From an uncultured virus (IMG/VR IMGVR_UViG_3300010296_000006) (Duplodnaviria; Heunggongvirae; Uroviricota; Caudoviricetes), in the IMG/VR virus record IMGVR_UViG_3300010296_000006: a stretch of 64,000 bases of DNA. One strand, written 5' to 3'. The translations under genes and the position numbers were made by a program. The notes beneath the pieces are model-generated. The model saw nothing but the letters and a program-made list of their open reading frames with translations. It was not told where the DNA came from and searched no databases. The stretch's first letter is position 1, and each line of letters opens with the position of its first letter. Shown here piece by piece: positions 8,194 through 51,633 of this stretch.

Positions 8194-9122
8194 TTTCGTT
8201 CACCTTGCTCTATTTTATTTAGACCTTTATCGGTTCCTCTTAAATCAAATACACCATCAATAAGAAAACGTAACGGCGTTCTAATACCGTATTGATTAAT
8301 ACCATCTTTTCCTTCGTCTATCCATCCAACGTGAATACTATCACTTTCAAGCAATCCAAAATCTTTACAAACTTTTTCATACAAATGTTTATAGTTGCTC
8401 CACCAATAATCAACACCAAATGATTTTATCATTTCTGTACCTATCCACATGTCACTTACGTTTGAATAGTCAAAATCGTTCATTATGCTTATAGGACCAT
8501 TTACACGCTCTCTTGTATAACGTATACCAATACGTTGACTTCCCATTCCAAATGCTTTACTTAAACTTACACTAACACTTTTTACCGCAGGATGTGAAAC
8601 GTCAAAATCAAAGTTACGACATTGCCCAAACCAAGCACCGTCAATGTGTACCGGTATATCGTTATCTTGACAATGATCTAATAACTTGTCAAAGTCTTCG
8701 TGATAGTTTGTTGTAATACAACTTGGATAGCTTGTGACAAAAACATTGCCTTTTGTAAGTTCTTTATAATCTTCGATTTGTTTAACTTTAAAATCAGTTA
8801 ACCTGCGATGATATTTGTATTCGCCTTTAAAAGTTGTTATGTTTTTGCCATGTAACTGGTGTAACTCGTCTAACTGATGTGTAGTTCCTATTATTGCATC
8901 TTTCCTACTAAAAGAATCTATATTAGTATATTTCACAAGTTTGTGTTCTTTTATCCACATATCCATATGATCTAAAAACTTGTCTTTATAAGCATGAGGA
9001 TTTTTTGGATAATCTGCCATATTTAGTTGAGCTCTAAACTTATTAAACATACTTACAAACATAGGACGCTGTCTGCGTGTACCTAAGTGTTCTAATGTTA
9101 AATCATCGTATTTTATATCCAT
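8190..9122 (-). CDS. PLP-dependent enzyme (fold type I aminotransferase-like)
   Basis: VHIDGAW; SLSKAFG...RIG (PLP-lysine motif). Confidence 0.7.
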   Translation of the reverse strand: MDIKYDDLTLEHLGTRRQRPMFVSMFNKFRAQLNMADYPKNPHAYKDKFLDHMDMWIKEHKLVKYTNIDSFSRKDAIIGTTHQLDELHQLHGKNITTFKGEYKYHRRLTDFKVKQIEDYKELTKGNVFVTSYPSCITTNYHEDFDKLLDHCQDNDIPVHIDGAWFGQCRNFDFDVSHPAVKSVSVSLSKAFGMGSQRIGIRYTRERVNGPISIMNDFDYSNVSDMWIGTEMIKSFGVDYWWSNYKHLYEKVCKDFGLLESDSIHVGWIDEGKDGINQYGIRTPLRFLIDGVFDLRGTDKGLNKIEQGERK

Positions 9123-10009
9123 TTTTCTACCACAGCATCTAGTTTACAAGGACATGCTCTATAATCACATACTATAGGGTCTTTAGGTAAAGTATATGTT
9201 CCAGTTTTTATATTTCCTAAACTACCACCAACACCTTTTGTACATCTTTTAATATTACCATCTGGTTCAACCATAAGTCTACGTATTCCAGCAGTGCATG
9301 TATATCCTTCAAACTTATGCAATCCTTTATCTAAGACTTTCATAAAACGCATAGGTTCTCCATCAAAATGTAAGTTTTGAGGTATTTTCCAATTTATACC
9401 AAAAGGTTTCATTTTATGCCAACTATTGTTTTGTATCCATTCACGTTGTTCGTCTGTATATTCAAAATAACTTGTACCATCAATACTTGTTCTTGTGAAC
9501 TTAGGTGTTATTTCTACATTTAGATCTTGTAATCTTTCGTACAACAACTTAGCTCTTTCGTAGTTATCTGGTACAATCATTAAAGGAATGCTAACACTAG
9601 CTTTGTGCTGCATTATTTTTGCAACTTCGTAAAAATGATCATCATTAGCTTCTTCGGCATGCCAGCTTAAAAACACAAAAGCGTTTTGAGTTTTAAACTT
9701 TTCCCAATACCTTAGTGTTCTACTTGCATTTGTAGCATATTCAACAAACACATCTTCGTCGCTTATTGTATCTACAAAATCTTGAAACTTAGGCCACACA
9801 GTAGGTTCACCACCTAGCACTTCAACATAAATGTATTTGTTTTGTTTTTTAACGTTTTTGATTAAATCTATATAAGGTTGCCAATCAGTAGGCCATCTAT
9901 AACTGCCATCTCTATGATAATCATTACAATACGAACAACTAAAGTTGCATACATTATGTACAAAAAGAGTTAATACACAACAATCAAGGTTTTCATTTGT
10001 TATATGCAT
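9113..10009 (-). CDS. Radical SAM protein (family C); start revised to ATG 10009
   Basis: CNFSCSYC; GGEPT; FEGYTCTAG...GGSLGNI...CDYRACPC. Confidence 0.88.
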   Translation of the reverse strand: MHITNENLDCCVLTLFVHNVCNFSCSYCNDYHRDGSYRWPTDWQPYIDLIKNVKKQNKYIYVEVLGGEPTVWPKFQDFVDTISDEDVFVEYATNASRTLRYWEKFKTQNAFVFLSWHAEEANDDHFYEVAKIMQHKASVSIPLMIVPDNYERAKLLYERLQDLNVEITPKFTRTSIDGTSYFEYTDEQREWIQNNSWHKMKPFGINWKIPQNLHFDGEPMRFMKVLDKGLHKFEGYTCTAGIRRLMVEPDGNIKRCTKGVGGSLGNIKTGTYTLPKDPIVCDYRACPCKLDAVVEKWI

Positions 10010-11375
10010 CAAACAACTCCTTGTACTGAGGCACAATGTCTAATATATTTTGTTTACGTATTTCATCAAGTTTTACTGTAACATCAACAAACTCTTCTAA
10101 CCATGTGTTGCCACTCCAGCACATACCTTCTGAATAATCTTCACTCATCATAAACTTAATAACACCATTTGCAATTTTTGAAAAATCTTTTTTAATCTTT
10201 TCGTCAAAATCTGTATTGTCTATCCAGTCTATGTGTTCTTGATAATAATCTGCAACTTGATCTTTAATATATTGAGGTAGAACTTTTACATTATAATATT
10301 TTGGACTATGGCACATATGATGAGAAACAATAGGACGTGAATCAGACACAGGATTAAATCTAGTTAATCCACTTTCAGTTAACTTCCATTTCATAAACTC
10401 AACAAAATGAAACACGTTCATAGGTGTAACAGTAAATGCAAACCAACCTTTAAGATTGATATTTGGATTTTGATCAATCTTTAGCATGTTTTTATAAACA
10501 CTATCAAAGTTTGCAGGAGTACGTTGATAGTTAAATACATCTCCTGTTCCATCAATACTTACACCTAATCGTACTTGTTTAAAATTTTCCCACATTTTTA
10601 TTAATCTATCAGGAACATTTGTTAGATTTGTATTATATTCTAAACGCATATCTTTTGCTGTTCCATTTGCAACAATACGTTCTAAACTTTCAAAATGTTC
10701 ATCAATGATTAAAGGTTCTCCACCTACAATGTAAAGTTTTTTTGCTTTTGCAGCATACTTTTCAAAGTTATGCCAATACATATTATTGTTTTGGAACCAA
10801 TCATACTGATCAGTATGATATTTTCCTTTATCATTTTTAACTAGTTCTATTTTTTCATGTGTATCATTATAATGAGTTCTACCAGTCAGCTTCACATGAT
10901 CTTCATACCATTTGTGGCTATCAGTTGGACCACACATACGACACTTTAAGTTACAAAAGTTACCATATCTAATATCAACAAAGTTGATATCTTGTTTTGT
11001 TACATCAAGTGTTCCATCTTCTTGAGTTATTTCTTTTGCTTTTTCATAATCAATATGATTACCAAACCAACGTTCCCAGTCTTCTTTTTCATATTCTCTA
11101 CGACTTCGAATACCATTTAACTCTTCTTGTCTACAACGTTCACACTCAGGATGCCATTCACCTTTAAGCATTGCTGCACGTACTTCTTTCAAAATAGGCG
11201 CATTACGTGCTTCATTCCAATCATCTTTACCTGCATTGTACGTAGTACCATCTTCTTTTTTCATTATACCACGTTGTGGACTATAACTGTTTGTGTTACA
11301 GCAAATACGTAAATCACCATTATTTCTTAGGTTAATACTATTCCACGGTAATGGACAGAATCTACAATCACTCAT
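9993..11375 (-). CDS. Radical SAM protein with N-terminal twitch/SPASM-like domain (family A)
   Basis: FCPLPW...ICC...CERC precedes CNLKCRMC; GGEPL; SIDG. Confidence 0.9.
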   Translation of the reverse strand: MSDCRFCPLPWNSINLRNNGDLRICCNTNSYSPQRGIMKKEDGTTYNAGKDDWNEARNAPILKEVRAAMLKGEWHPECERCRQEELNGIRSRREYEKEDWERWFGNHIDYEKAKEITQEDGTLDVTKQDINFVDIRYGNFCNLKCRMCGPTDSHKWYEDHVKLTGRTHYNDTHEKIELVKNDKGKYHTDQYDWFQNNNMYWHNFEKYAAKAKKLYIVGGEPLIIDEHFESLERIVANGTAKDMRLEYNTNLTNVPDRLIKMWENFKQVRLGVSIDGTGDVFNYQRTPANFDSVYKNMLKIDQNPNINLKGWFAFTVTPMNVFHFVEFMKWKLTESGLTRFNPVSDSRPIVSHHMCHSPKYYNVKVLPQYIKDQVADYYQEHIDWIDNTDFDEKIKKDFSKIANGVIKFMMSEDYSEGMCWSGNTWLEEFVDVTVKLDEIRKQNILDIVPQYKELFDAYNK

Positions 11376-12777
11376 AAACTATCTCCTGTAACAATGGAAA
11401 TACTTCTCCAAACTTTGTTTCCCAACCACGTTGTTTATTAATAAGTTGTAAGTATTCTCTAGTTTCAGGAAGTCTTGCACTCCAATCTTCTGCATTCATA
11501 AAACGGATTATACCTTGATATCTTTTAATCCCGTACGGTGCTGCTAAAAACTGTTCTTTTGTAACACCAGCTTCTTTAACACCTGTAAAACTTTGCCAGT
11601 TATCTTCTACCCAAGGATAAAACTCATGTTCATATTTGTTACTAATCTTTTGTTTTATATGTTTTGGTAAAACTTTTACATTAAGTTGTGGTGGCCAATA
11701 TGCAAAATGCATGTTTACACCTCCGGCTCCTAATGGCCATTTGTTTATTTTTTTAAATCCTTGGCTTACTTTCCATTGTATAAACTCAGGTATGTAACCT
11801 ATATTCAACGCCATAATCGTTGTTGCAGTTGTAACTTCAACTTGTGGTGCAGTATTGTCTAACTTGTGAAAAACTTCTTCTTGATGTTCCCATTGGCTTG
11901 GATATCTAATATAGTCATTGTGTTTGCCCGCAGCATCAATACTGTAATGAAATCTTACACGTTTAAACTCTGCCCATAAATCAAATAAATCATCTCGCCA
12001 CTCTACTGCATTACTATTGTAACGCAATTCAATCTTATTAGCATACCCTCGTTTAATACATTCTTCTAACAAATCGTAATGCTCGTCAATAATCAAACTT
12101 TCGCCGCCTGCAAAATACAACTGGTAAAGATTAGGCACTTGATCAAATAAATCTTCCCAAAATCTAGGATTATTTTTATGCCAGTTATAACTAGCACCGT
12201 GATTTCTACCTTTGTTTTCCCACTGACTTGTACCTTTTAACTTTTCGTTTTTCATATTAGGATACATTTGTTGCCATTCTTTAATCCAGCCGCTGGAATC
12301 ATGAGGACTGCACATTACACATGCTAGTTGGCACTTAGTACCCATTCGTAAATCAATATAACGTATTTTTGTAGGAATACTACCATCTTCATTTGTTTCT
12401 TGTGCGAGTTTTTCTAAATCATATCTATGTCCCCAATATTGTGTTTCCCAGTTTCTTTTGCTTAAATGACCTGCATCTTCTTCTTTATAACATTTAAGAC
12501 AACTGGCTGGTTTTTCACCACGTAGCATCATGTTCCTTACATTACGCATGTAACTACTATTCCAGGCTTCGTCTAAACTAGTGTGGTTAAAATTTGCAGG
12601 AATGCCATCATCATTTTTTACAACGCCAACTTCGCCGCCACCAATTTTATTACTACTATCAGGATCTTGTACACTACTAGCATTACTAGTACAACAGGTT
12701 CTCATTTTACCGTCTGGTCTGCTAGATAAGTGTAACCATGGCAATGCACAGAACGTAGGGGATATATTATCAGTCAT
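11368..12777 (-). CDS. Radical SAM protein (family A)
   Basis: FCALPW...TCC...CLKC; CQLACVMC; AGGES. Confidence 0.9.
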   Translation of the reverse strand: MTDNISPTFCALPWLHLSSRPDGKMRTCCTSNASSVQDPDSSNKIGGGEVGVVKNDDGIPANFNHTSLDEAWNSSYMRNVRNMMLRGEKPASCLKCYKEEDAGHLSKRNWETQYWGHRYDLEKLAQETNEDGSIPTKIRYIDLRMGTKCQLACVMCSPHDSSGWIKEWQQMYPNMKNEKLKGTSQWENKGRNHGASYNWHKNNPRFWEDLFDQVPNLYQLYFAGGESLIIDEHYDLLEECIKRGYANKIELRYNSNAVEWRDDLFDLWAEFKRVRFHYSIDAAGKHNDYIRYPSQWEHQEEVFHKLDNTAPQVEVTTATTIMALNIGYIPEFIQWKVSQGFKKINKWPLGAGGVNMHFAYWPPQLNVKVLPKHIKQKISNKYEHEFYPWVEDNWQSFTGVKEAGVTKEQFLAAPYGIKRYQGIIRFMNAEDWSARLPETREYLQLINKQRGWETKFGEVFPLLQEIVYE

Positions 12778-13912
12778 TTATTTTATTTTTTACCATTTCG
12801 TATATGTCTGGATTGATATCTTTAAACTTAATACCTTGAAAGTTATCTAAAATATCAATACTTTTTAATAAGGTTTTGTATTCCGGCTCATACTTATCAT
12901 TTGCCAACACAAGTTGATTGAAGTTAGCGCCTATGCCCTTATTCATTTTTTCTATTCTTTCATTCATTTCAAGCTGATATATCGACAAGTACTTTGGACG
13001 CTGCAAAGGATTGCACCAGAAAGATATGCCATAAGTTTCGCAAAACTTTTCTAGTTTATCTATCATATTAAAGTTAAGTATATTTATCGTTGCTGTATTA
13101 CTCAAAATTATATTTTTACTTCTTTCCTTGAGTTGTACCCATTTTTGTACATTATTTTCAATTTGCTGCCAACTTATGCCATATCTTAAACATTCGGCTA
13201 ACGATCCGACTGCATCTAGGCTAAAACTTATTTCACATTTTTTAAACATTAAAAGTTTATCTATTAGTTCTTGTTTAGGAAAAATACTTCCATTTGTGTT
13301 TATGAATAAAGATACTTTACTCATATCACAACTATTATACAGTTTTTCAAAAAACTTGTCAAGATGTTTAGCATAAAATGGTTCACCTCCAATAAGCCTT
13401 ATACTTTCTATACTTGACAAATCGGTTTTGTTCCAAACATCGATAAACTTGTTTTGATATTGCTTGTATGTTACGTTTGTTCTATTTGTAAATAAATCAA
13501 TATCATTTTTTGCAAAATCATTTATAACACTTTTTGCACTGCCCCATTTACTACTAGCAGCTGGACCACACATCCTGCACATCATATTACATGTGTAATC
13601 AATACTTATTTCTAGTTCAACAGTTGAGCCTGTATCCTGTGTTAGGATATTATTATCGACAAGATAGTTTCCATATTGTCGCCTACTTTCACGACCAGCT
13701 TCTTCATCTTCTTTACACATCCAGCAACCAGTTGGCCACTTGTCTTCATTTAAAGTCTTTTGAATATATTTAAAATGATTGCTATTAGATACTTCGTCTA
13801 GATTTTCAACTTCATACAAATACGGAGTATCTCCTGTATACTTACAACATGGCAAAATTTTGCCATCCATGTCTACCATACTTCTTCCATTATATGCATA
13901 AAAACAATTCAT
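12770..13912 (-). CDS. Radical SAM protein (family A); start revised to ATG 13912
   Basis: MNCFY...PCC...CWMC; CNMMCRMC; GGEPF; TNGS. Confidence 0.87.
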   Translation of the reverse strand: MNCFYAYNGRSMVDMDGKILPCCKYTGDTPYLYEVENLDEVSNSNHFKYIQKTLNEDKWPTGCWMCKEDEEAGRESRRQYGNYLVDNNILTQDTGSTVELEISIDYTCNMMCRMCGPAASSKWGSAKSVINDFAKNDIDLFTNRTNVTYKQYQNKFIDVWNKTDLSSIESIRLIGGEPFYAKHLDKFFEKLYNSCDMSKVSLFINTNGSIFPKQELIDKLLMFKKCEISFSLDAVGSLAECLRYGISWQQIENNVQKWVQLKERSKNIILSNTATINILNFNMIDKLEKFCETYGISFWCNPLQRPKYLSIYQLEMNERIEKMNKGIGANFNQLVLANDKYEPEYKTLLKSIDILDNFQGIKFKDINPDIYEMVKNKIND

Positions 13913-15039
13913 ACTTTCTCCAACATATAACTTGCCCATGGATACCTATCTAAAAACTTTTCATTACATTTATAGTCCCAAATAGTAAGTGCATAAAGTT
14001 TTAAGTCTTTACAATCTTTTATTGTAGGTTGTGTTGTTTCGTACATTACTTTTTTTTGAAATGCGTACCAACGTCTATTAGCATTTACAAGATTCATCTT
14101 TGCAAACGATTTATAAAAATCTTCTCTTATACTTTCTGGAATAAATCTAAAGTTCATAAAATTAAAATTTTCTACTTCATTATAGTGTACCATTGCTTTT
14201 GGAAACTGATTAGCCCAGTCAAAAAAGTTATGTATATCTAAATAGTTTAAAATTCCAACACATGGATTAATACTTACATTACATTTACTATTATAAAACT
14301 TAATAAAGTTTTTTTCTATTGTATTCCATTTACTAGGGTATCGTTGATATTCCAATGTATCTTTAATGCCATCAATACTACAACACAACCACGAAGTTTT
14401 AAACTTTTCTAATGCATTTAATATCCTAGGTTTTGCAGATGTTACATTTGTAATAAACTCTATTTCTAAATCTGTTTTGCCCAGTTCAACTAATTTCACC
14501 AAAAACTCTTCAACTTCGGGCATTATAAAAGGTTCACCGCCGGCAAATCTTATTTTTTCTAAATCTGGTAAATCTAAAATAAGTTCAAAAAGTTTACTTT
14601 GATCAGGAACTTTTGATGGCATATTTTCAACCAAAGGTGTATGTATGCCTTTGCTTTTTAACTCTAATCCTAGTTTTACTAACTGATCAGTTTCTTGAGG
14701 TTGACACATTTTGCATTGTAGATTACATTTATTGCTTAGTCTAATATCAACAAACTTTATGCTAGGCGTAGTTTCTTTCCTTATATCGTCAAAACGCCAA
14801 CTATGATTATATTTGTCTTCGGCAATCCAGCAGTTTTCACACAACTTGTGTCTTATGCCATTGTCTAAACTTTCTCGAACTTCATTAAAAATATTATGAT
14901 TTTTATAATATGTATTTAAATCAGAAACATCGGTCCAGTCTACCTTAAAGTTATCTATATCTGTTTGCATACAGCACTGAGTAATATTGCCAGTATTGAA
15001 GTACAGACTGTTATATGTTTTTGGACAATGTAAAGACAT
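13909..15039 (-). CDS. Radical SAM protein (family A); start revised to ATG 15039
   Basis: HCPK...QCC...CENC; CNLQCKMC; GGEPF; TAAGTA motif 4 nt before this ATG. Confidence 0.87.
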   Translation of the reverse strand: MSLHCPKTYNSLYFNTGNITQCCMQTDIDNFKVDWTDVSDLNTYYKNHNIFNEVRESLDNGIRHKLCENCWIAEDKYNHSWRFDDIRKETTPSIKFVDIRLSNKCNLQCKMCQPQETDQLVKLGLELKSKGIHTPLVENMPSKVPDQSKLFELILDLPDLEKIRFAGGEPFIMPEVEEFLVKLVELGKTDLEIEFITNVTSAKPRILNALEKFKTSWLCCSIDGIKDTLEYQRYPSKWNTIEKNFIKFYNSKCNVSINPCVGILNYLDIHNFFDWANQFPKAMVHYNEVENFNFMNFRFIPESIREDFYKSFAKMNLVNANRRWYAFQKKVMYETTQPTIKDCKDLKLYALTIWDYKCNEKFLDRYPWASYMLEKV

Positions 15040-15046
15040 ACAGTAC

Positions 15047-16126
15047 TTATTTAAACTGCTCTCCAAACGGATCAAACTCGATACCACATTTCATACTACA
15101 AACTTTAAGTTTTCCATTACTACAACCTTTAGTATTCCAACTTGCTTCAATGTTGTCAAATATTCCTGTGTCAAATACTGCACGTAGTCCGTGTTTTTTA
15201 GCACTGATTGCATCTTTGCCGCCAGCTGTATCTATAAAATCCCATATTTGTTCTACTTTTGGATCAGGATTCCACCATTTGTACATACGTCCAGCAGTCC
15301 AACAACACGGCATGGCAAGTCCTTCTGCTGTTATAAACAAGTTGCCTTCGTCTTTTACTTTACATTTTATAGGTACTACATCATAGTATGCATCCATGCT
15401 ACCGTACTTTTCTAGTAGAGCATCTTGTTTACTTAATGCTTTGTTAAGATATTTTTCATCGGGCTTTTTTAATTCGGCAGTTTTGTTGCCTTTTTTGTCA
15501 ACTGCTTGGTGCGATTCTTTCTTTTCAGTTTTAGCAGTAACAAATCTACCTGTTTTCTTTGCTTGGAACTTTTCAAAACCCCATTGGTTAGCTAACTCTT
15601 CTGCTTGTTCAACTTGATGTTGATTGTGTTCAAATATTAAGAAGTCCCAACGTGCTCTGCCACCAGCAGCAATAAAACTGTGCATTGCTCTTTCTACATT
15701 GTCCCAGACAACACCCTGCCTGTATAAATGATTAGTGTCCCTAAGACCGTCAACGCTGAAAATAACAGTACCCATCCTGCCAAAGACTTTGGCCAATTCA
15801 CTCCACCACGCTTCATCTCTTGCTCCTGCATTTGTGTTCATAGAAAGCCAAATGTCTTTGTTGTGCTCTCTAAAGTATTTAAATATTTCAAGTGTGTCTC
15901 GTGCAACAATAGGATCACCCAAGTTACCACACATGTACATTGTTTTTAGTTGTGCAATAAACTCAGGCTCAAATATACGTTTACAATCTTCTAGTGTAAG
16001 TTCGCTTAAATCTATGTGCGGATTTACAGCGCCACCGTTTTGATTGCGATCACACATAGGACAACTGGCTTGACAGTTTTGTGTATTTTCTAAATGAATT
16101 GTTGTTATATTTTCATATTTGTACAT
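15047..16126 (-). CDS. Radical SAM protein (family B)
   Basis: LENTQNCQASCPMCDR; CGNLGDP; FSVDGLRDTNHLYR; PCCW...CSMKCG. Confidence 0.9.
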   Translation of the reverse strand: MYKYENITTIHLENTQNCQASCPMCDRNQNGGAVNPHIDLSELTLEDCKRIFEPEFIAQLKTMYMCGNLGDPIVARDTLEIFKYFREHNKDIWLSMNTNAGARDEAWWSELAKVFGRMGTVIFSVDGLRDTNHLYRQGVVWDNVERAMHSFIAAGGRARWDFLIFEHNQHQVEQAEELANQWGFEKFQAKKTGRFVTAKTEKKESHQAVDKKGNKTAELKKPDEKYLNKALSKQDALLEKYGSMDAYYDVVPIKCKVKDEGNLFITAEGLAMPCCWTAGRMYKWWNPDPKVEQIWDFIDTAGGKDAISAKKHGLRAVFDTGIFDNIEASWNTKGCSNGKLKVCSMKCGIEFDPFGEQFK

Positions 16127-24808: not shown

Positions 24809-24834
24809 AATGATATTTAGCCAATAAATACAGT

Positions 24835-27278: not shown

Positions 27279-27306
27279 ATGGTATTTATATACCAATAAG
27301 TACAGT
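27279..27306. promoter_or_regulatory. Back-to-back late-promoter-like motifs
   Basis: TATAAATA 4 nt before ATG 27278 (-) and TAAGTA 4 nt before ATG 27307 (+). Confidence 0.6.
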
Positions 27307-39838: not shown

Positions 39839-39839
39839 G

Positions 39840-40901: not shown

Positions 40902-40912
40902 AAATATACTTA
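40901..40912. promoter_or_regulatory. Minimal bidirectional late-promoter-like element
   Basis: TAAATA (+, 40901-40906) and TAAGTA (-, 40907-40912), each 5 nt from the ATG of its gene. Confidence 0.55.
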
Positions 40913-41514
40913 TGTTTGAAATAGTTAATGAGTTTGAAAATGCGATTGCAGACTTTTTTGGAGCGCCGTGTGCAGTAAGCACAGACTGTTGTACTCATGC
41001 TATAGAGTTATGTTTACGGTATAAAAAAATCAAAAAAACCACTGTTCCAAACCATACATACCTAAGTATTCCTTTAACTCTTAAAAAACTAGATATAAGT
41101 TTTAGTTTTAACAGAGAGCAATGGACTGAGTATTATAAACTATCAAACACTAATATTATTGATGCTGCTACACTTTGGAGGCAAAATAGTTATATTCCTG
41201 GCACACTTATGTGTATAAGTTTTCAATACAAAAAACATTTAAGTTTAGGTAGAGCAGGCATGATATTATGCGATAATGTAGTAGATTGTGCGAACTTATT
41301 AAAAATGGGATATGACGGTAGACACAGAAATGCTCCTTGGCCTGAACAAAAAATAACTAGTATGGGATACCATTACTACTTAACTCCAGAAACTGCACAA
41401 CTTGGGTTAGACAAACTGCCAGATGCTATACAACGTACTCCAAAAATTTGGTCTTGGAAAGATTATCCTGATATATCAAATAACTATATCTTCAAGGATA
41501 TACCTGTTTCTTGA
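40912..41514 (+). CDS. DegT/DnrJ/EryC1/StrS-family PLP aminotransferase, short form
   Basis: FENAIADFFG...AVSTDCCTHAIEL; IIDAA; SFQYKKHL..GRAGMI; GYHY. Confidence 0.78.
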   Translation: MFEIVNEFENAIADFFGAPCAVSTDCCTHAIELCLRYKKIKKTTVPNHTYLSIPLTLKKLDISFSFNREQWTEYYKLSNTNIIDAATLWRQNSYIPGTLMCISFQYKKHLSLGRAGMILCDNVVDCANLLKMGYDGRHRNAPWPEQKITSMGYHYYLTPETAQLGLDKLPDAIQRTPKIWSWKDYPDISNNYIFKDIPVS

Positions 41515-42285
41515 ATATTTTTTTAAATCTTTGAAGTCAGATCTCAAATACAAGTTGTTATGTATATAATTATAAACTGGGTCAAGATTTGTTACTATAT
41601 CATTTTCTATAACAAAATCTTCAATCATGTTTGAAAATAAAGTAAATCTGTCAAGTGTTTTTTCTCTTATTTTCCATCCCAGTGACGGATAAATCCAATC
41701 TTTGACTTTTTGCATATGGCCTTTTATATCAGGATGACTATCTTGTAATTTTCCAAACGGTAAGTTAGTTTCAAACATATGCCAACTGATTTCTGGAAGT
41801 TCTTTTTCATAAAAATGCTTTAACATGTCCCATTGTTCAGAATGATCAAAAAATATAGCTGCCTCATTTGTATAAGGTGTAAAGCTGTGTCCTTGCCATA
41901 TAATATTATCTTTATACAGTTTATTTACATATATAATTGACGTCATATTTTTAACTAAATCGTTTTGCATACTCCAATGATTTGTTAGCCATGTTCTATT
42001 ATTGTAAGGACTACCTGTGTTAAAAACACTTCCATGAGCTTTCCACATTCCATTGTCAAATCTATCCTCACGACTAAAACTACTCCACAATATCATTATT
42101 TTATCGTCTGGTGTAAACTTGTGTTTTATATCAGCTTCGAGTATTCTGTGTTGTATTCCTACATTACCTAAGCCTGCTAAACCAAAATTGTAAAGTTCTA
42201 ACTCTTTATCATATGCAATAATGTTTGCCCATGTTGGCCACATGTAACTTGTAAAACTACAACCAAAAGTGAATAATCTACTCAT
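41476..42285 (-). CDS. SGNH-like protein
   Basis: TFGCSFT; NFGLAGLGN; WSSFSRED; DSHP. Confidence 0.5.
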   Translation of the reverse strand: MSRLFTFGCSFTSYMWPTWANIIAYDKELELYNFGLAGLGNVGIQHRILEADIKHKFTPDDKIMILWSSFSREDRFDNGMWKAHGSVFNTGSPYNNRTWLTNHWSMQNDLVKNMTSIIYVNKLYKDNIIWQGHSFTPYTNEAAIFFDHSEQWDMLKHFYEKELPEISWHMFETNLPFGKLQDSHPDIKGHMQKVKDWIYPSLGWKIREKTLDRFTLFSNMIEDFVIENDIVTNLDPVYNYIHNNLYLRSDFKDLKKYSRNRYILEDIVI

Positions 42286-42305
42286 ATAATGTCCTTAAAT
42301 ATAGT

Positions 42306-43313
42306 ATGAATATTTATAGCTCAAATGAATGGGATCCATTAAAGAAGGTTTTAGTTGGCGTTGCAGACTACTGCCGTATTCCTGAAATGGACAAAAGTCT
42401 ACGTTGTATAAACTATGCAGATAGACAGGATGTAAGTGATGTAAAGGCTGGTCTATATCCTGATCAAGTTGTTGAAGAAAGCAACGAAGATTTAGATAAG
42501 TTTGTTGCTTTTCTCGAAGGCGAAGGCGTTGAAGTTGTTAGACCTAAACGTACACCTGATGTTGAATACTACAACTATTGTCCTCGTGATACTGTATTTG
42601 TTCATAAAAAAGGATTTCTTGCAACGCCGATGAGTTTGCGAGCAAGAAGGAGAGAGTTTCATCATATGCTACCCCACATTGGAGGCGTAGAACTAAGCCC
42701 TCAATATAATAATGACGACCTCTACGATGAAACTTGTGTTGGCGATCCTGATCGACTAGCACTTACTGAAGTAGCGCCTTGCTTTGATGCTGCTAATGCT
42801 ATTCGTGCAAATGATGACATTTTGTATCTAGTAAGTAATAGCGGAAACAAAGCAGGTGCTGCCTATTTAGATCAATGGCTCAATAAGCCTAGATATGATT
42901 TTCAAGAATGGGGTGATAAAAAAGTACATACACTTGAAAATGTTTACAGTTATATGCACATTGATAGCACTATTGCATTTTTACGTGAAGGACTATTACT
43001 AGCTAATCCAAGTAGAATTAAAAGTAAAGATGTTTTGCCTGGTCCGTTCAAGGATTGGGATATTATTTGGGCGCCGGATCCTGTTGATGCAGGACATTAT
43101 CCAGGGCTATGCAACAGTAGTATTTGGACTTGGAATGTAAACTTGTTTAGTGTTAATCCTAATCTAGTTGTATTAGAAGAACATCAAGATCCTACACGTA
43201 AAGCACTAGAAGCACACGGTATTGAGTGTGCTATGTTGCCATTGCGTCACGCACGTACATTAGGCGGTTGTTTCCATTGCTGCACACTAGATCTTATGCG
43301 TGAAATCGGGTAA
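42306..43313 (+). CDS. Amidinotransferase (glycine/inosamine-phosphate amidinotransferase family)
   Basis: NEWDPLKKVLVG; YCPRD; FDAAN; HIDSTI; GGCFHCCTLD (catalytic Asp/His/Cys motifs). Confidence 0.88.
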   Translation: MNIYSSNEWDPLKKVLVGVADYCRIPEMDKSLRCINYADRQDVSDVKAGLYPDQVVEESNEDLDKFVAFLEGEGVEVVRPKRTPDVEYYNYCPRDTVFVHKKGFLATPMSLRARRREFHHMLPHIGGVELSPQYNNDDLYDETCVGDPDRLALTEVAPCFDAANAIRANDDILYLVSNSGNKAGAAYLDQWLNKPRYDFQEWGDKKVHTLENVYSYMHIDSTIAFLREGLLLANPSRIKSKDVLPGPFKDWDIIWAPDPVDAGHYPGLCNSSIWTWNVNLFSVNPNLVVLEEHQDPTRKALEAHGIECAMLPLRHARTLGGCFHCCTLDLMREIG

Positions 43314-44075
43314 CGAAAGCAAGCCTTTTAACTTTTCTACAGTTTCTTGATGCCATTCTTTTCCGTCATGCATCATGTCTCTTGCTTTCATAGATCCATT
43401 TTTACATCTAATAACCCATAATCTATATGGACTATTTAATATACGTTCATGATCCATTTCCCATGAAAAATTTAAAACAGGAACATTCATGCTTTTCCAC
43501 AATAAGTTAAAATGATCAAACCATAATCTATTAGCAAAATGTAGCTCACCGTAGTCCATGATATATCTTTTTCTATACCAAGTTCCGTCTATATCTCTCG
43601 ATTCTGCACGATCAGTGAACCGATAATCATTGTTATTGTGATAGATAAAACTTTTGCGTGTATGTGCTGGCCATTGTACTATAACAATTTTAGGAATAGG
43701 AAAGTTATTTTTAATCCATTGTGATGCTTGATAGCACTGAATATCACAACCGGTACCTTGATTTGCTGCATTATACACATCGGTTTCTAAATATTTTGAT
43801 ATTTTCCAAGACCAAGTTTGATCGTGGTGTAATCCTACACCTTCGGTATAACTACATCCAAATGTTAAAACAAAATCATGAGACAAATCGGCAACCGATT
43901 TTGTTCTGTGTCCATATTCGTTAAATTTATATTCAATATTTACACCAGCCCATTCCCAACTAGGATTTCGTTTACATTCTCTGTAATAATCGTCTTGTTC
44001 TCGTTGAGACATAAACTTCATAGTTTTGTTTATTCTTTCTGGATTAATAAGTAAACCGTTATCGTGTAACTCCAT
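43287..44075 (-). CDS. SGNH-like protein
   Basis: YKFNEYGHR; TFGCSYTEGVG; YNAANQG; RDMMH. Confidence 0.5.
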   Translation of the reverse strand: MELHDNGLLINPERINKTMKFMSQREQDDYYRECKRNPSWEWAGVNIEYKFNEYGHRTKSVADLSHDFVLTFGCSYTEGVGLHHDQTWSWKISKYLETDVYNAANQGTGCDIQCYQASQWIKNNFPIPKIVIVQWPAHTRKSFIYHNNNDYRFTDRAESRDIDGTWYRKRYIMDYGELHFANRLWFDHFNLLWKSMNVPVLNFSWEMDHERILNSPYRLWVIRCKNGSMKARDMMHDGKEWHQETVEKLKGLLSLPDFTHKI

Positions 44076-44126
44076 TTGATGTTCCTATAAATATCTAATA
44101 TATTTAATGTTAAAGGACTTTATATT

Positions 44127-45458
44127 TTGACAAACTGGTTTATGGGCATCTATTTTAGACCAAAAAATAATCTTTTACCCGAACTTATATCAGAAACAGG
44201 CACAAGAAGACCTATGACAGATATCAGTACCATAGATCAACTTGTTGATTTAATCAGAGAATCTAATATTACTGATTCTACTCATCCTATTGCAGTGTTT
44301 AATGGCACTCATACTATAGATCATTTAGATAGTTTATTGATTTCAGAACAACACAAAAAGATTTTGCAAGAAAAAACAATCGGATTTTATTTTTATGAAC
44401 CTTTGACACATTACAAATATAATCCTAATGGACATAAACAACCACACATTTTAAAAATAGATAACGCACCCGAAGAACTTAAAGACATTAGAGCATATGA
44501 ACTAGATAGTCTAAACGAATGGGCAACTAAACACAATTTTAACAACGTAAATGTTTATTGTACAGATTACAAATGTTGGGAGTATTATCAACCTAAATAT
44601 CCTAATATAAAACTACTATCTATGGACTTATTTGTAGAATGGTGGACATGTCATGTTAAGTTAAGAGATAGAAAAAACTTTATACAAAATCGAGAAGAAA
44701 TGCCTCCGGAGTTTTTTCCTGAAAAAATAGTAAAAAAGTTTTGGAGTGGAGCATGGAGATATGATCCAAGCAGACATTTTATCACAGCATTTTTAGCAGG
44801 CAAAAATATGCTAGATACAAATCATGTTAGTTTTTATTATGGCATGTCAAACGAGGATATGAAAAGAAGAATGTGGTTTCCTTGGAAAGAGTTTGAGTTA
44901 CGACATCCTGCACTGTCTAATATTTTACTCGAAGGTAATACAATTTTACAAGAAAAAGTTCCTTTAAGTTTTGCAGTTAACAATCCTGCTAAAAAAGGAG
45001 CAAATGATAGTATTGAGCCTGAGGATAGTGGCTTAAACGCAAGAACTACGCACGATCCAACAGATACCTATTTTGAAAGTTTTTGTGCTATTGTTCAAGA
45101 AAGCAGAGTTACACAACCGTGGCCTAACATTAGCGAAAAAACTCTAAACGCAATAAAAAGTTATAGACCGTTTTTACTTTGTGGAGCACCTGGTGTTTTA
45201 CAAATGCTAAAAGACATGGGCTTTAAAACATTTGACAAATACTGGCCAGAAGATTATGACGATATAATATCAAATAAAGATAGACTTGCACGTATTTGCG
45301 AAATAATAGAATACATTGATAGTTTTACAATAGAAGAAATGAAACTAATGTATCAAGACATGGAAGAGATCCTTATACACAATCATAACAACATAAAGTC
45401 AATACCAAACTTTTATGTTAAAATAAATGAACAACTAGGTGAAATAATCATTGAATAG
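44127..45458 (+). CDS. Putative glycosyltransferase-like protein (third paralog); true start may be ATG 44142
   Basis: FCAIVQES...ISEKTLNAI...PFLLCG...GFKTF...EDYD. Confidence 0.5.
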   Translation: MTNWFMGIYFRPKNNLLPELISETGTRRPMTDISTIDQLVDLIRESNITDSTHPIAVFNGTHTIDHLDSLLISEQHKKILQEKTIGFYFYEPLTHYKYNPNGHKQPHILKIDNAPEELKDIRAYELDSLNEWATKHNFNNVNVYCTDYKCWEYYQPKYPNIKLLSMDLFVEWWTCHVKLRDRKNFIQNREEMPPEFFPEKIVKKFWSGAWRYDPSRHFITAFLAGKNMLDTNHVSFYYGMSNEDMKRRMWFPWKEFELRHPALSNILLEGNTILQEKVPLSFAVNNPAKKGANDSIEPEDSGLNARTTHDPTDTYFESFCAIVQESRVTQPWPNISEKTLNAIKSYRPFLLCGAPGVLQMLKDMGFKTFDKYWPEDYDDIISNKDRLARICEIIEYIDSFTIEEMKLMYQDMEEILIHNHNNIKSIPNFYVKINEQLGEIIIE

Positions 45459-46193: not shown

Positions 46194-46804
46194 TCTCCTC
46201 TATTATTTTTAATAACTTCAATATACATATCTTTGAGATTTACTAATCCGTCAGTTGTATGTCTTTCATAATAAAACTTGTTGATATTACCTAAAATAAC
46301 TTCAATTTTATCCATGTGGATATAAGGAGAGTTTAAACTAGCACATGCATAAAAATCATGTATGCGTACATTATCATTATCATCTAAATATGCATTATGA
46401 GGATAAAAGTTCATTTTAATCATATTATGTTTTTCTAATGCATCGAGAACATCATTTACTTTATTTGTGTAATCATTCTTCCATTTGGCTTTTTCTATTA
46501 AATGATTTAAACTTGTATCATACCATTTGAAAAATATCAGTTGTTTCTTTTTATCGATATCAATAATCTCTGGAGCAAACTTTTCTTTTTGAACATGCTC
46601 TAGCCATTTGCATTCATTTTCAAAAAAGAAATCGATATGTGCTTGGGTATATCCTGCTCTATCAAAAAAGTATCTGCGATCATATTGATATTGCATACAA
46701 AATATGCTTTTATTTGGACTAATGCGAGGAACATAAACAATGTTAGGACGTACCATTCCTCTGTTTTGATACTTATAAAATATTTGCCATTCTTCTATAT
46801 TCAT
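46154..46804 (-). CDS. Kinase-like-fold protein
   Basis: ENECKWL...FAPEII; KMNFYPHNAYL...VRIHDF resembles the catalytic-loop and DFG regions. Confidence 0.45.
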   Translation of the reverse strand: MNIEEWQIFYKYQNRGMVRPNIVYVPRISPNKSIFCMQYQYDRRYFFDRAGYTQAHIDFFFENECKWLEHVQKEKFAPEIIDIDKKKQLIFFKWYDTSLNHLIEKAKWKNDYTNKVNDVLDALEKHNMIKMNFYPHNAYLDDNDNVRIHDFYACASLNSPYIHMDKIEVILGNINKFYYERHTTDGLVNLKDMYIEVIKNNRGEWPVCLTTNLQTY

Positions 46805-47763
46805 AATCGTTCTTTTGGTATAATAATATCAGTTCCGCAATGACAATGCTCTTTACTACATATAACAGGTCTTGTAGTAAATTGCAAGTCTTTATCTAAA
46901 ATATTTCCATGATTTCTTCCAACACCGCAACTTGCACTTGATATTTCTCCTCTTGGATTAATAAAAAGAGCATCATCTACAAAACATTTCCAGCCTTTAA
47001 AAAAGTTTTGTCGGGCAGCAATAATCTTGTTACTGTTAATAGGTTCAATAGTATCAGTATAATGTGCCATGCTTACAGCTTTGTTTGGATTGTAAGGCTT
47101 GGGAAGTTTTTCAACAGTTTCAAACTGTGCTTCTTCTAAAAACTTTACTTTTTCAGGATCACTGTACTCCCAAGGTCCTGCATTCACACTCATTTCATCA
47201 AACAGAGGTGTCCATTCTAAGTTATAGTTTGGTACTTCTTCTCTTACCCGATTTCCAAACTCAACAATCTCCCAAAAGCGTTCTTCGTGCATCAGCATTT
47301 TTGTACACAAATAGTTTACTTTGTCGCACAAAAACTTTGCGTTTTCAATATACCTTTCTTTCTTACTAAACTCTACATGAAAACTTGCAACAATGTCATT
47401 AAACAAATGATAATGTTGCTCCCAATATTTTTTTGGTCTACTAAGATTTGTGTTTACACTAACTGTTAAACTATCACCTAACCAATCTTTTAGGTATTCT
47501 GTAAGAGGAATAAAGTTTTCCCAATGTGTTGGTTCTCCTCCGCTGTAGAATATTTTAAAATATTTGTATCCTTTGTCTTGGTAAGTTTTAAAAATCTTTG
47601 TTACATTTTCAATATATTGATCTAGGTTACCATTATTTCTAACATCTCCTGCCCAGTTACCTGGATTGCAATAAGTACACTGAAAGTTACAAAAGTTGTT
47701 TACTTGCCAAGTAATACAAGCATACGGTTCTGCCATAGGTGTAATTTTTAGTAACTTAGACAT
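46801..47763 (-). CDS. Radical SAM protein (family C)
   Basis: WQVNNFCNFQCTYC; GGEPT; FKGWKC...GNI...CSKEHCHC. Confidence 0.9.
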   Translation of the reverse strand: MSKLLKITPMAEPYACITWQVNNFCNFQCTYCNPGNWAGDVRNNGNLDQYIENVTKIFKTYQDKGYKYFKIFYSGGEPTHWENFIPLTEYLKDWLGDSLTVSVNTNLSRPKKYWEQHYHLFNDIVASFHVEFSKKERYIENAKFLCDKVNYLCTKMLMHEERFWEIVEFGNRVREEVPNYNLEWTPLFDEMSVNAGPWEYSDPEKVKFLEEAQFETVEKLPKPYNPNKAVSMAHYTDTIEPINSNKIIAARQNFFKGWKCFVDDALFINPRGEISSASCGVGRNHGNILDKDLQFTTRPVICSKEHCHCGTDIIIPKERL

Positions 47764-49039
47764 AGTTTCTTAACCATTCCATTTCAGGAAATGTGCTCCA
47801 AAAATCTTCTCCACGATATTGATCTAATCTATGATTATTGTCAAAAAACTGCTTTAGTTTTGATTCATTTAAAGTTCCAGCGTTGAAGAACTGAATAACA
47901 CTATCAATCTTTCCAATAACATCTTTGATTATCTCAGGCTTAGCCATTGCTCGATCTTTAATTTTATCAAATGCCCATGCCTTGTAATCAATATATTTAC
48001 TTCTTAGTTCTTGTTTATAATGCTCAGGTATATAATCAACTCGCATAAAATCTGGACCAGTTAACATGTTAAGTCTGCAATTTTCAATATCAACTAAACC
48101 ACGCTCAACCCAGTCCATGTGAAAGTCTGGCCAGTTCCAAACATTGTACAAACTTATAGTTGGTGTTAATTCGAAATGCACATGTGGTACTTCTTCAATC
48201 ATCTGTAAACGATTACGTTCAATCTGACCCCAATCTGTTCCATGACGACTATATTCTGCTCGTGCGCCGTTGCAATCTAAACTTGCACTAACATGTATAT
48301 CGTTAAACTGCTTCCAATATTCAAGAATACTTTTACGTTTGTACTTAAAATTACTGAAGTTTGTAGTGTAACGTAATGCTACATCAGTTTTATTAGTTTC
48401 TAACCATTTATCTAATATCTTATAATGTTCTTCGGTAATAAGTGCTTCGCCGCCTGCAAAATAAACTTCTTCGCAATCCGGCAAGTATTTTTGTAAATCT
48501 TCCCAAAAGTTATTCTTTTTTGCAATATTAATAATAATCTCGCCATCATTATTAAGTATATTTGCAACTTCATGTTTACCATATAGTTCACCGTGTTCTT
48601 TAGCATGTAGACTGCTAAGTTCAGGACCACAACTACGACACTTCATGTTACAAATATTACTAAATCTTACATCTAAATATACCATACGCATTTCGTCGAT
48701 ACTACCATCGTTGTTAGTTTGCCGCACTAAATCAAAATGTTTATCTCCATACCAATGATTGTGATTTTTACGAAGAGTCCACACATAGGTCCTATCTTCT
48801 AACTCGTAACAACGTCTACAACAATCAAGTCTTTCTCCATTTAGCATAGCAAGACGCAGTTCTTTATATCTATCACTGTTCCACGCTTCTTCGATACTAC
48901 TTTGTTTTAAGTTAGCAAAAGGCTGATCGCTGTCTGCAATACAACAAGGCATAACTCTGCCATCAGGCCAGGCATGCATATGAATCCATGGTAAAATGCA
49001 AAATGCTTTGTTTTCTTTTAATAAATGTTCTTTATCCAT
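47756..49039 (-). CDS. Radical SAM protein (family A)
   Basis: FCILPW...PCC...CRRC; CNMKCRSC; AGGEA. Confidence 0.9.
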   Translation of the reverse strand: MDKEHLLKENKAFCILPWIHMHAWPDGRVMPCCIADSDQPFANLKQSSIEEAWNSDRYKELRLAMLNGERLDCCRRCYELEDRTYVWTLRKNHNHWYGDKHFDLVRQTNNDGSIDEMRMVYLDVRFSNICNMKCRSCGPELSSLHAKEHGELYGKHEVANILNNDGEIIINIAKKNNFWEDLQKYLPDCEEVYFAGGEALITEEHYKILDKWLETNKTDVALRYTTNFSNFKYKRKSILEYWKQFNDIHVSASLDCNGARAEYSRHGTDWGQIERNRLQMIEEVPHVHFELTPTISLYNVWNWPDFHMDWVERGLVDIENCRLNMLTGPDFMRVDYIPEHYKQELRSKYIDYKAWAFDKIKDRAMAKPEIIKDVIGKIDSVIQFFNAGTLNESKLKQFFDNNHRLDQYRGEDFWSTFPEMEWLRNYV

Positions 49040-50261
49040 CCATCATCTCCGCAAGTTCTGGAAAAGTTTGACAAAAGTCTTCATTTCTTATCTCGTCACG
49101 TCTTTGTATATGATGTTGAAACTGTTGTTTTTCATTGTCCCAAGTGTCTTGTTCATTTGCAAAATTCATTGCATCCTTAACGTGTAGAGATGGCCACCAT
49201 CCATCTTTACTCATAAAGTCGTAAAGTTTTTGATTGTTACTATTACCAATTTCTTTTAGACTTACTGGCAATGCATGAGCACAAAAATAAGAAGGTGTTA
49301 TTGCTCTATATATACTAATACTATCTTTATGTCTAAATAAATCTTTGTTCATTAAGTATGTAAAAAAATCAGCCAAAGTTCTATAATTAAATACACTTAG
49401 TACTGTGTTAAACTGGTAATCAATGTAATCTAAATTCCTAATACTTTTTAAGTTTTCTTCAACAACAGCCCAATCTGTTCCATGCCTCAAATATTCAGCA
49501 CGTTTTCCATAGTGATCTAAACTAGCACTTATTTCTACTTTTTTAAATCTACTCCATAAATCTAATATATCATATTTTTTATATTTGAAGTTGCTCATGT
49601 TAGTATTATATCGCAAAGTGATTTGTTTATTATATCCACCTTGTATCATTTCTTCAAGTATTTGATAATGTTCGTCTGTAATCAACGGTTCGCCACCGGC
49701 AAAATATGCCATGTCCATATGACATACTTGAGATTTTATTTCTTCTAAAAGTTTACCAGATGAATCGGCGTGATTGATTATTCTATAGTTAGGCGGAACA
49801 TGATCATGCTGTTTCATTTCTTGCGCCCATTGACTACTAAACTCTGCACCGCAGGTCCTACATTTAAAGTTGCAAATATTACTAAATCTAACATCAAAGT
49901 AACGCATTTTGAAATCTGCAACAGTTCCATCGTCTTCAGTAGTTGGAACTACTTCGTCAAAATATTTACTAAAGTTTTCTAAACTATATGTTCTAAAACT
50001 AAAAGGACTGCTTTTTTCATGTTTGTAACAATATTCACAAATACTGCTTTTTTCATCATTAAGCATTCTCAAGCGTAGTTCACGCATAAGTTTATCATTA
50101 AATATTTCAGACAAAGGTTTGTTTTTTACATTATCAAAAGGATCAGTATAATCACTGCTACAACAGGGATAAACATCACCCTTTGGGGTAACGTTTAAAT
50201 GTATCCACGGAAACATGCAAAATGTTTTACTATTTAATAACTTTTCTTTGTCAAAATCCAT
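49032..50261 (-). CDS. Radical SAM protein (family A); start revised to ATG 50261
   Basis: FCMFPW...PCC...CEYC; CNFKCRTC; GGEPL. Confidence 0.9.
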   Translation of the reverse strand: MDFDKEKLLNSKTFCMFPWIHLNVTPKGDVYPCCSSDYTDPFDNVKNKPLSEIFNDKLMRELRLRMLNDEKSSICEYCYKHEKSSPFSFRTYSLENFSKYFDEVVPTTEDDGTVADFKMRYFDVRFSNICNFKCRTCGAEFSSQWAQEMKQHDHVPPNYRIINHADSSGKLLEEIKSQVCHMDMAYFAGGEPLITDEHYQILEEMIQGGYNKQITLRYNTNMSNFKYKKYDILDLWSRFKKVEISASLDHYGKRAEYLRHGTDWAVVEENLKSIRNLDYIDYQFNTVLSVFNYRTLADFFTYLMNKDLFRHKDSISIYRAITPSYFCAHALPVSLKEIGNSNNQKLYDFMSKDGWWPSLHVKDAMNFANEQDTWDNEKQQFQHHIQRRDEIRNEDFCQTFPELAEMMDG

Positions 50262-51633
50262 TTGCTTCCTTACATAGGTCAAAGAAATCATTCATTTCAG
50301 GAAAGGTAGATTCAAAATCTACGTTACGTCTACGATCTTGTTCTTTAAAAAAGTTCCAAAAATCTCGACGACCTTCTCTAACTCTATCAGGAGTATATTC
50401 TGTAGACCTCATGTAATCAACTACACGACGAAACTTTTCGTACTCTAATTCACTAAAATGATTTTTACTACCTTCTTGTACATTTTCTCTAATAAACTGT
50501 AAATGTTTTTCCATATAGGGCAGGTACTGCTCTTTAGGCAAAATATTTATATCATATTGCAACGGCTCTTTTAGATATGGTGTATCAAAATGAATACGTT
50601 GCCATCTGCCACTGTTTACATCATTATACTTACGGCGCCATTCTAGCATTTTTTCTAGTAAAGTTTCAAACGTAGTTACACTAAACAAACTAAACGTAAT
50701 CATAAATGTTACAGGCGCAGTGGTATTACGCATAAAGTAATCTAAGTTACGTTCAAACACTTCTAAGTCTAAACCGTCTCTAATATATTCTGCACGAGGC
50801 CCCCAAGTATCAATGCTGCTGAATAACTTAAACTGTTTAATTTTATTTTGACTTAACAAACTGTTTACACTATCAGTAAACTTTTCTAGTTGTTTTTCTT
50901 TGCCGCCAAGATTACTGTTCACATTTAGTTCAAGATGTGGCTTTGGATCTTTTTCAAGTTCTTCAAACAGTCTATATGTGCTTTTTTGTATTGTAGGCTC
51001 TCCGCCAGTAACACGTAAAATGTTTAGTGTCTTGCTAACTTCAGGCCACCATTTCCACCAAGCACGTAAGTAAGGATTTTTATCTTCTTCGTATATACGA
51101 AACCAATCGATATCGTTTCTATGATTTTTAACCATGTTATATGGACCGTGTTGACGGATTTCATTGTAATATCTACTACTTGCTTTTGGATGACAATATC
51201 CGCAACGGAAGTTGCATTCATTACCAAATGAAATTTCAATATACTCAGGGTTAACATTAAAATCCCAAGGATTGAACTTTACTTCTTGCAATCTTTCTTC
51301 ACTGTAAATACTACCACTACGAATATGACGGTCACTAATATAATCGTCTCCCATGTTTTCAATATTCCAGCAATAGTTACATCCGACACATTGTTTGCCT
51401 TCTAACATCTCTCTGCGTTCTTGTTTCTTTTGTTTTGTATTATGCAACGCACTAGGATTGGTTAGGAGCTCGTCAACATCAATTTGATGAGGAGCAGGGT
51501 GATAACAACTGTGTGTTTCACCTGTTTGCAAGTAGATAGTTGTATGGTACCATTTTGCAAAACAAAATGTAGGAGAAAAATGCCTTGTTGTAATAGCATT
51601 AATACTTTTAAGTTTATCTGTATTTTCTGACAT
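50251..51633 (-). CDS. Radical SAM protein (family A variant); start revised to ATG 51633
   Basis: FCFAKW...HSCYH...CNYC; CNFRCGYC; GGEPT. Confidence 0.88.
   Translation of the reverse strand: MSENTDKLKSINAITTRHFSPTFCFAKWYHTTIYLQTGETHSCYHPAPHQIDVDELLTNPSALHNTKQKKQERREMLEGKQCVGCNYCWNIENMGDDYISDRHIRSGSIYSEERLQEVKFNPWDFNVNPEYIEISFGNECNFRCGYCHPKASSRYYNEIRQHGPYNMVKNHRNDIDWFRIYEEDKNPYLRAWWKWWPEVSKTLNILRVTGGEPTIQKSTYRLFEELEKDPKPHLELNVNSNLGGKEKQLEKFTDSVNSLLSQNKIKQFKLFSSIDTWGPRAEYIRDGLDLEVFERNLDYFMRNTTAPVTFMITFSLFSVTTFETLLEKMLEWRRKYNDVNSGRWQRIHFDTPYLKEPLQYDINILPKEQYLPYMEKHLQFIRENVQEGSKNHFSELEYEKFRRVVDYMRSTEYTPDRVREGRRDFWNFFKEQDRRRNVDFESTFPEMNDFFDLCKEANGF

Follow-up and report, generated by a model that had tools for sequence, protein, structure and literature searches.

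Orthogroup-specific pairs of radical-SAM genes in the tail-side island of an uncultured tailed virus: linkage, natural fusions and possible consecutive action

The first 64 kb of the 122,393-base, single-contig record of an uncultured Caudoviricetes virus (IMG/VR IMGVR_UViG_3300010296_000006), a stretch of 64,000 nucleotides that we refer to as the window, carry an island of radical S-adenosylmethionine (rSAM) genes: 20 of them, with the CxxxCxxC motif, are located between positions 1 and 51738, and no rSAM gene with this motif occurs beyond 51738 among the open reading frames (ORFs) of at least 90 amino acids (aa) that were examined on the contig. Our analysis is concerned with two of the gene families of this island: family A, the rSAM proteins with an N-terminal twitch region (NF033640), and family C, the rSAM proteins with twitch-type cysteines at the C-terminus. 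At four places, numbered here as pairs 1 to 4, an A gene is followed in transcription order by a C gene. An earlier, sequence-only reading of the window had proposed that these neighbours are obligate partner enzymes or hetero-complexes, duplicated as modules and specialised for different substrates. Here, we have compared the pairs with related phage and cellular loci, and we find that the adjacency is accompanied by linkage that is tight for two pairs and loose for the other two, by natural fusions of the two genes in the tight pairs and by intact cysteines in both partners.

The island and its radical-SAM genes

The 20 genes are sorted into nine A genes, three B genes (2738, 15047 and 32859), five C genes and three C2 genes (4829, 30096 and 33907); C is distinct from C2 both on BLAST scores and in the tree. 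The C members are the genes at 9113, 29209, 34917 and 46801, and the gene truncated by the start of the contig, which we refer to as C0. The features that matter for the analysis are listed in Table 1. The frame of C9113 probably starts at about position 10009 (MHITNEN, with GGAG ahead of it); C0 comes after a QueC-like gene, and C2 4829 comes after no C gene.

Table 1. Positions of the paired radical-SAM genes and of associated features in the window
Feature	Position	Strand	Evidence
A9993, A gene of loose pair 1 (N-terminal-twitch rSAM)	9993..11375	-	NF033640 356 bits
C9113, second gene of pair 1	9113..10036	-	PF04055; C-terminal twitch-type cysteines in alignment
A27914, first gene of tight pair 2	27914..29221 (likely start 27971)	+	NF033640 319 bits
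C29209, C gene of tight pair 2 (twitch-type rSAM)	29209..30105	+	predicted local distance difference test (pLDDT) of model 90
C2 30096, optional gene after C29209	30096..31157	+	
A35843, A gene of loose pair 3, faces pair 2	35843..37225	-	NF033640 398 bits
C34917, fast-diverging C-type rSAM of pair 3	34917..35846	-	one clade, Shimodaira-Hasegawa-like approximate likelihood ratio test (SH-aLRT) 100
C2 33907, optional gene after C34917	33907..34962	-	
A47756, A gene of tight pair 4, at the end of the run A50251-A49032-A47756	47756..49039	-	NF033640 380 bits
C46801, C gene of tight pair 4	46801..47763	-	
Three further A genes (11368, 12770, 13909), no C next to them	11368..15087	-	NF033640 415, 208, 196 bits
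Two further A genes (49032, 50251), no C next to them	49032..51738	-	NF033640 364, 306 bits
C0, fifth C-type gene, cut by contig start, no A upstream in window	1..386	-	
Putative genes of sugar handling, lying between pairs 3 and 4	37818..45458		NAD epimerase/dehydratase 38927, short DegT-like 40912, amidinotransferase 42306
Possible GT10-like family	37818/39840/44127		weak profile signal

All nine A proteins score above the NF033640 cut-off (196-415 bits against 170), and in those where it is detected, the SPASM/twitch Pfam domain precedes the rSAM domain. Five cysteines ahead of CxxxCxxC are invariant in the 26 aligned A sequences, while A50251 has a histidine at one twitch cysteine position. 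In the C proteins, CxxxCxxC and a GGE motif are invariant (27/27), and so are the C-terminal cysteines C238, C281 and C286, with C258 present in 22 and C288 in 25 of the sequences. For pair 2, eight invariant cysteines are found in each of 43 A27914 and 43 C29209 sequences. Both partners thus look intact, with their predicted SAM-cluster and twitch cysteines in place.

The structural model of C29209 is closest to the folds of BlsE, anSME, EpeE and MoaA (13-20% identity), BlsE being the top match (E 4e-9, template modelling (TM) score 0.61), with SpeY and BtrN also among the matches; the twitch region of A matches the C-terminal part of BtrN (E 8e-4). The top sequence matches of the C profile are viperin-like enzymes and MoaA; membership of C or C2 in the prokaryotic viperins (NF038283) or in MoaA (TIGR02666) has been rejected, with at most 47 bits against cut-offs of 180 and 284. 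A search of the Atlas returned viral rSAM clusters only.

Pairing of A and C genes

The four adjacencies (9993 to 9113, 27971 to 29209, 35843 to 34917 and 47756 to 46801) are present in the sequence as they had been described, with pair 2 on the plus strand and pairs 1, 3 and 4 on the minus strand, and with a C2 gene next in line after two of them (30096 and 33907). They exceed what shuffled gene orders give: at least four A-to-C adjacencies are obtained with p=0.0005 in 200,000 shuffles of 56 genes, and with p=0.019 when labels are shuffled within the 20 rSAM slots only (0.002 if the two C-to-C2 steps are also required), for a pattern that was chosen post hoc, after the data had been seen. 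The order C to A does not occur in the window; A to C occurs at just four of the nine A genes, and A to A occurs five times. The overlapping frames on which the sequence-only reading also drew do exist, with overlaps of about 17, 13, 4 and 8 nucleotides for pairs 1 to 4, but we have dropped them as a sign of partnership, since 38 of the 43 same-strand neighbours overlap anyway. Pairs 2 and 3 and the C2 genes after them are oriented towards one another, an arrangement that recurs in many relatives, often with the inner genes gone. The GC content of third codon positions is 0.30-0.39 at 22884-31815 and 34917-37225, against mostly 0.16-0.28 elsewhere in the island, a hint that the facing cassette may have another history; as a link between A and C partners the common value has been discarded, because other neighbours share it.

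In order to follow the pairs in other phages, viral loci were fetched with the four C and the four A proteins (80 at most per query, which means the best 80 of 372, 105 and 329 matches for three of them); their ORFs were called and labelled by family hidden Markov model (HMM) and best window match, and near-identical anchors were collapsed. Every count includes the cluster closest to the window itself; the C34917 query returned one identical locus only, and the relatives of C34917 have been taken from loci fetched with other genes. With A27914 as the anchor, 15 of 15 loci have C29209 no more than two genes away (13 adjacent), and with A47756 as the anchor, 11 of 11 have C46801 at that distance or closer (9 adjacent), a figure that falls to 11 of 14 once three loci of another A clade (37-38%) are counted in. 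The other two pairs are looser: a C34917-type gene is found within two genes of A35843 in 7/9 loci (21/25 in the loci fetched with pair 2), and the C gene of pair 1 within two genes of A9993 in 5/9. Seen from the C side, within two genes upstream, A27914 precedes C29209 in 26/26, an A47756-type gene precedes C46801 in 31/31, and C9113 has its A in 11/13. Each A clade has its own C clade (subfamily table), and the C0 clade stands after an A in only one of 37 phage representatives. The gene that follows C in the window is kept in 17/31 loci for C29209 and in 4/29 for C46801; a C2 30096-type gene is the follower in those 17 of 31, and all 21 members of that type with a neighbour sit after the C29209 clade. 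In a further set of 49 metagenome loci, not dereplicated and fetched using a fusion protein, 31 A-C loci are scorable: 22 adjacent, seven with one gene between, one with two genes between, one fused and none lacking the partner. The pairing is orthogroup-specific and old, and pairs 2 and 4 were never found apart in the phage loci. The word obligate in the sequence-only reading does not hold as a general rule: C is gone after A9993 in 4/9 and after A35843 in 2/9 dereplicated relatives, and cellular relatives of A27914, described below, lack C29209 in their assemblies.

An unannotated family of 230-285 aa is repeatedly located between A27914 and C29209 (L243:11211-12065, L194:11265-12119 and similar loci); two of its members gave no Pfam match.

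The two genes of pairs 2 and 4 also occur as single proteins. Longer forms of C29209 make up four clusters (P0001-P0004; 16 sequences, one of them a fragment) among 721 candidates, and longer forms of C46801 make up four clusters (P0017-P0020) among 701 candidates. In all eight, the cognate A is located at the N-terminus (A27914 at 47-55% and A47756 at 39-42% identity), and both CxxxCxxC motifs are present, one N-terminally cut sequence excepted; none of the eight is joined to a non-cognate gene, though C2 often follows C29209. In locus L369 the fusion is a single ORF of 717 aa, behind the usual homologues of 26748, 46154 and 24128. The fusions of pair 4 fall into two separate clades, in the A tree and in the C tree alike, and another A+C fusion, of a pair absent from the window, is found in L460 and L468, genome-bin contigs with tail-region homologues. 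Among 757 candidates no fusion of C9113 was found, a weak negative, and none of C34917 turned up, for which no dedicated fusion search was made. The fold model of the natural fusion P0002 is of low quality (pLDDT 58, predicted TM score 0.44). Apart from these, homologues of 31018 (hydroxylase-like) and 31796 form one fused protein of 733-740 aa in Bdellovibrionales (L419:18448-20658, L421:2383-4584).

The trees of the four A and the four C genes allow a duplication of the pair as a module. The A quartet (9993,35843)|(27914,47756) has support of 96/96 under LG+G4, in a run that issued a long-branch warning, and its alternatives are rejected in the approximately unbiased (AU) test (p 0.02 and 0.017). 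In the best C tree the four genes split in the matching way, which gives both quartets one shape, but at a support of 58/9 and with alternatives at AU p 0.48 and 0.45; a quick C tree with more outgroups gives the matching split an SH-aLRT of 92. The duplication proposed by the sequence-only reading is compatible with these trees, in which the A quartet is well resolved and the C quartet poorly. In partial distance correlations, corrected for the other genes of the locus, the A and C genes of pair 4 reach 0.63 (n=33), the highest value of the set; 47756-49032 reaches 0.51 and 50251-51635 reaches 0.59. Divergence in C34917 runs at about three times the pace seen in its neighbour A35843 (mean distance 1.34 vs 0.39), which makes C34917 a candidate for a specificity-changing step.

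Relatives in cells and in cultured phages

The cellular set consists of 79 bacterial and archaeal genome loci, obtained from the best 80 of 113 matches. Four Bdellovibrionales loci have relatives of A27914 (37-40%), one of them close to seryl-tRNA synthetase on a contig of 3.0 Mb. When these four genomes and one more were searched genome-wide with profiles, no full-length C29209 orthologue was found, in assemblies that may be incomplete; the best match in the five scored 114 bits over positions 4-138 of 298. Arrays in Bdellovibrionales also occur in the orders A-C0-B, C-C-A and B-C, and in distant relatives a C29209-like gene is located upstream of an A27914-like gene. Glycosyl-, sulfo-, carbamoyl- or aminotransferases stand beside six of 14 solo cellular A genes (L426, L441, L466, L477, L485 and L487), and no such transferase is evident beside the other eight, with 95 of 152 neighbouring ORFs scanned. 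In single-protein scans of bacterial and archaeal genomes, A27914 had no match and C46801 matched a single fragment. The fragment C0 has 75-79% identity, over its extent in the window, to genes from Bdellovibrionota bins (L419:3971-5116, L420, L435) and 56-57% to a full-length phage member, a likeness that is a lead for the host or for the source of the gene.

Three records of cultured phages contain distant A genes, none of them with a match to C29209. Among cultured phages, an A50251-like gene (35%) of Ralstonia phage RsoM2USA carries the annotation hypothetical (L368:11944-13326), and Vibrio phage K566 has a small cluster of distant A genes and no C.

Interpretation of the pairs

We regard the four arrangements as old, orthogroup-specific pairs in a tail-side tailoring island, and we lean, with somewhat more confidence than doubt, towards a reading in which pairs 2 and 4 catalyse consecutive radical steps on one substrate, probably a sugar or cyclitol. 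For pairs 2 and 4, the linkage and the fusions are good evidence of functional coupling. A and C would then act in one branch of a pathway, with an intermediate that diffuses between them, as between CofH and CofG. Since C nearly always keeps its A while A can lose C (C9113 retains A in 11/13 vs A9993 retaining C in 5/9), C may be an additional step, dependent on its A; C2 would be a further optional step following C, so that C2 and C could both be dropped. The product might decorate virion proteins such as tail fibres, or perhaps the host surface, a suggestion that has less support. That the target is probably a sugar is suggested by the company that the pairs keep, i.e. the amidinotransferase, the DegT-like protein, the NAD epimerase, the weak GT8 and GT10 signals and the tail genes, together with the BlsE-like fold. 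The amidinotransferase 42306 resembles inosamine-phosphate amidinotransferase (E 2e-55); the glycosyltransferase signals are at E 0.003 for GT8 and at E 4e-4, in one of four homologues, for GT10, and profile searches of the Protein Data Bank with the 37818 and 51635 families yielded no useful match. The DegT-like protein (40912-41514) is only about 200 aa long, here and in relatives, and the Pfam model has 360 positions.

Several observations weigh against this reading. The gene on the other side of A27914, A47756, A35843 and A9993 is kept in 12/15, 11/11, 8/9 and 8/9 loci; other-side neighbours are about as conserved, and therefore linkage alone does not single out A and C. Overlap with a neighbour is the rule in the window (the 38 of 43 given above, with ORFs counted from the first start codon). 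In 63 of the 79 cellular loci there is an A gene and no C in the locus, the remainder being four with A then C, three with C elsewhere, two with fusions and seven without an A label. Fusion is not confined to A and C either: of the 150 best-ranked representatives in a mixed A/C profile search, 41 have a length of at least 520 aa, and these are 25 A+A, one A+C, one C-like fragment before A and 14 A with something else; the ranking favours A+A, so that the figures speak for fusion being common without giving its rate. The A-C partial correlations of pair 2 (0.09, n=37; 0.39, n=42) lie below those of A27914-A35843 (0.54 and 0.61), and those of pairs 3 and 1 are 0.12 and 0.06 (n=13 for pair 1). 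With regard to the substrate, the three glycosyltransferase calls are weak or absent, and the peptide-modifying enzymes anSME, EpeE and SkfB score almost as high as BlsE.

Much of this is what would be expected if the order were simply inherited, i.e. if a dense operon had grown by tandem expansion of A, with a C closing each A run, and its genes shared a broad pathway with no one-to-one link. The conserved other neighbours, the general overlap, the p of just 0.019 within the rSAM slots, the different orders in distant relatives (C-C-A, B-C, A-C0-B and the C29209-like gene upstream of the A27914-like gene) and the fusions of other neighbours (A+A, methyltransferase+5976, and B+QueC-like, as in L052, where a homologue of a QueC-like gene is joined to a B-type rSAM) all agree with it. 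Pairs 2 and 4 stay linked, however, while the gene after C changes, and the longer forms of C29209 and C46801 are fused to nothing but the cognate A in spite of the frequent C2; for these reasons we consider an inherited order alone to be unlikely, albeit deserving serious attention. At the opposite extreme stands the obligate hetero-complex, in which each A binds its own C in a four-cluster unit that passes a radical intermediate or electrons and has been duplicated as a module. The short linkers of the cognate fusions, the common quartet shape, the pair 4 subclades that match in both trees and the partial correlation of that pair are in its favour, and there is a precedent for electrons passing between rSAM molecules (PMC10470005); the loss of C after A9993 and A35843 in several relatives, the Bdellovibrionales relatives of A27914 without C29209 (in possibly incomplete assemblies), the poorly supported C quartet and the lack of excess co-divergence in three of the four pairs speak against it, and we give it little credence.

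The pairing may also be real and the target not a sugar but a base of the DNA, a nucleotide or a residue in a protein, for instance with a modification of the 7-deazaguanine-like or peptide kind. The island does contain genes for two methyltransferases and for two Asp/Asn-hydroxylase-like oxygenases, as well as four QueC-like genes whose matches are weak; viperin-like enzymes and MoaA lead the sequence matches of the C profile, and anSME, EpeE and SkfB have folds close to that of C29209. The QueC-like genes, however, score about 20 bits or less against the TIGR00364 cut-off of 150, no QueD, FolE or DpdA match was found among the 64 window proteins scanned, and the island lies by the tail genes and has enzymes of amino- and amidino-sugar type; we judge such a target to be improbable. 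About as improbable, in our estimate, is a bolder version of the coupling, in which the tight pairs would form a new dual rSAM machine (twitch-rSAM followed by rSAM-twitch, with four iron-sulfur clusters), a single unit that is either split or fused and that phages have copied as a module for a novel chemistry of virion sugars. Consecutive steps on one substrate are the reading that we prefer over these. Successive action of the pairs on a sugar, if it takes place, would be a phage-encoded radical chemistry of glycans, and binding of A to C, if it occurs, a new two-enzyme rSAM architecture. Twenty rSAM genes are too many for blind assays; the linkage and the fusions pick out two pairs to be assayed together, with the natural single-chain versions P0002 and P0017, which is the shortest way to an initial function for the NF033640 family.

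Relation to known systems

All nine A genes belong to NF033640 (N_Twi_rSAM), whose model names single proteins and has no C partner; to our knowledge, the family has no tested function, and the literature that was searched contains no study of it. Neither A-C pairs nor A+C fusions were found in that literature, with few subscription papers and with supplements outside its scope. The fold matches of C29209 (BlsE, BtrN, SpeY, MoaA, EpeE and anSME) have an identity too low for a transfer of function, and we know of none that is paired with an N-terminal-twitch partner.

The closest parallel in organisation is CofG/CofH: according to PMC8498797, FbiC (F0 synthase) is a CofG-CofH fusion whose domains work independently, with an intermediate that diffuses between them, and two rSAM domains act in sequence, as separate proteins in certain lineages and as one fused protein in others. 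The likeness is one of organisation only; unlike CofG and CofH, A and C both have twitch-type cysteines, at opposite ends. Membership of A or C in the CofG/CofH-FbiC family was considered and set aside, with no such match among the listed HMM, profile and fold hits.

With regard to phages, PMC7029224 describes a variable host recognition cluster in pelagimyophages that lies next to the tail genes and contains glycosyltransferases as well as rSAM cassettes, and PMC12801897 describes rSAM, aminotransferase and amidinotransferase genes together in cyanophage S-SCSM2R. The window resembles the former in its tail-side rSAM island and the latter in having the same three enzyme types; the consulted parts of both accounts give no rSAM subfamilies, pairs or fusions, and the window has 20 rSAM genes. 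In the parts that we could consult, PMC11898562 lists rSAM, 2-oxoglutarate and QueC-like genes only, and PMC12619734 concerns a different phage lineage.

Other features of the contig

The four QueC-like PP-loop genes are located at 416-2741 (three in tandem) and 27151-27984. In the protein scans of the window, tail collar, tail-fibre and virion-protein matches fall at 57159-62687; further along the contig there are what we take, from reading of the translations, to be capsid and baseplate genes. An ORF of 4593 aa starts at the end of the window (63324 to 77105 on the contig), and ORFs of 3101 aa and 1409 aa are located near the far end of the contig.

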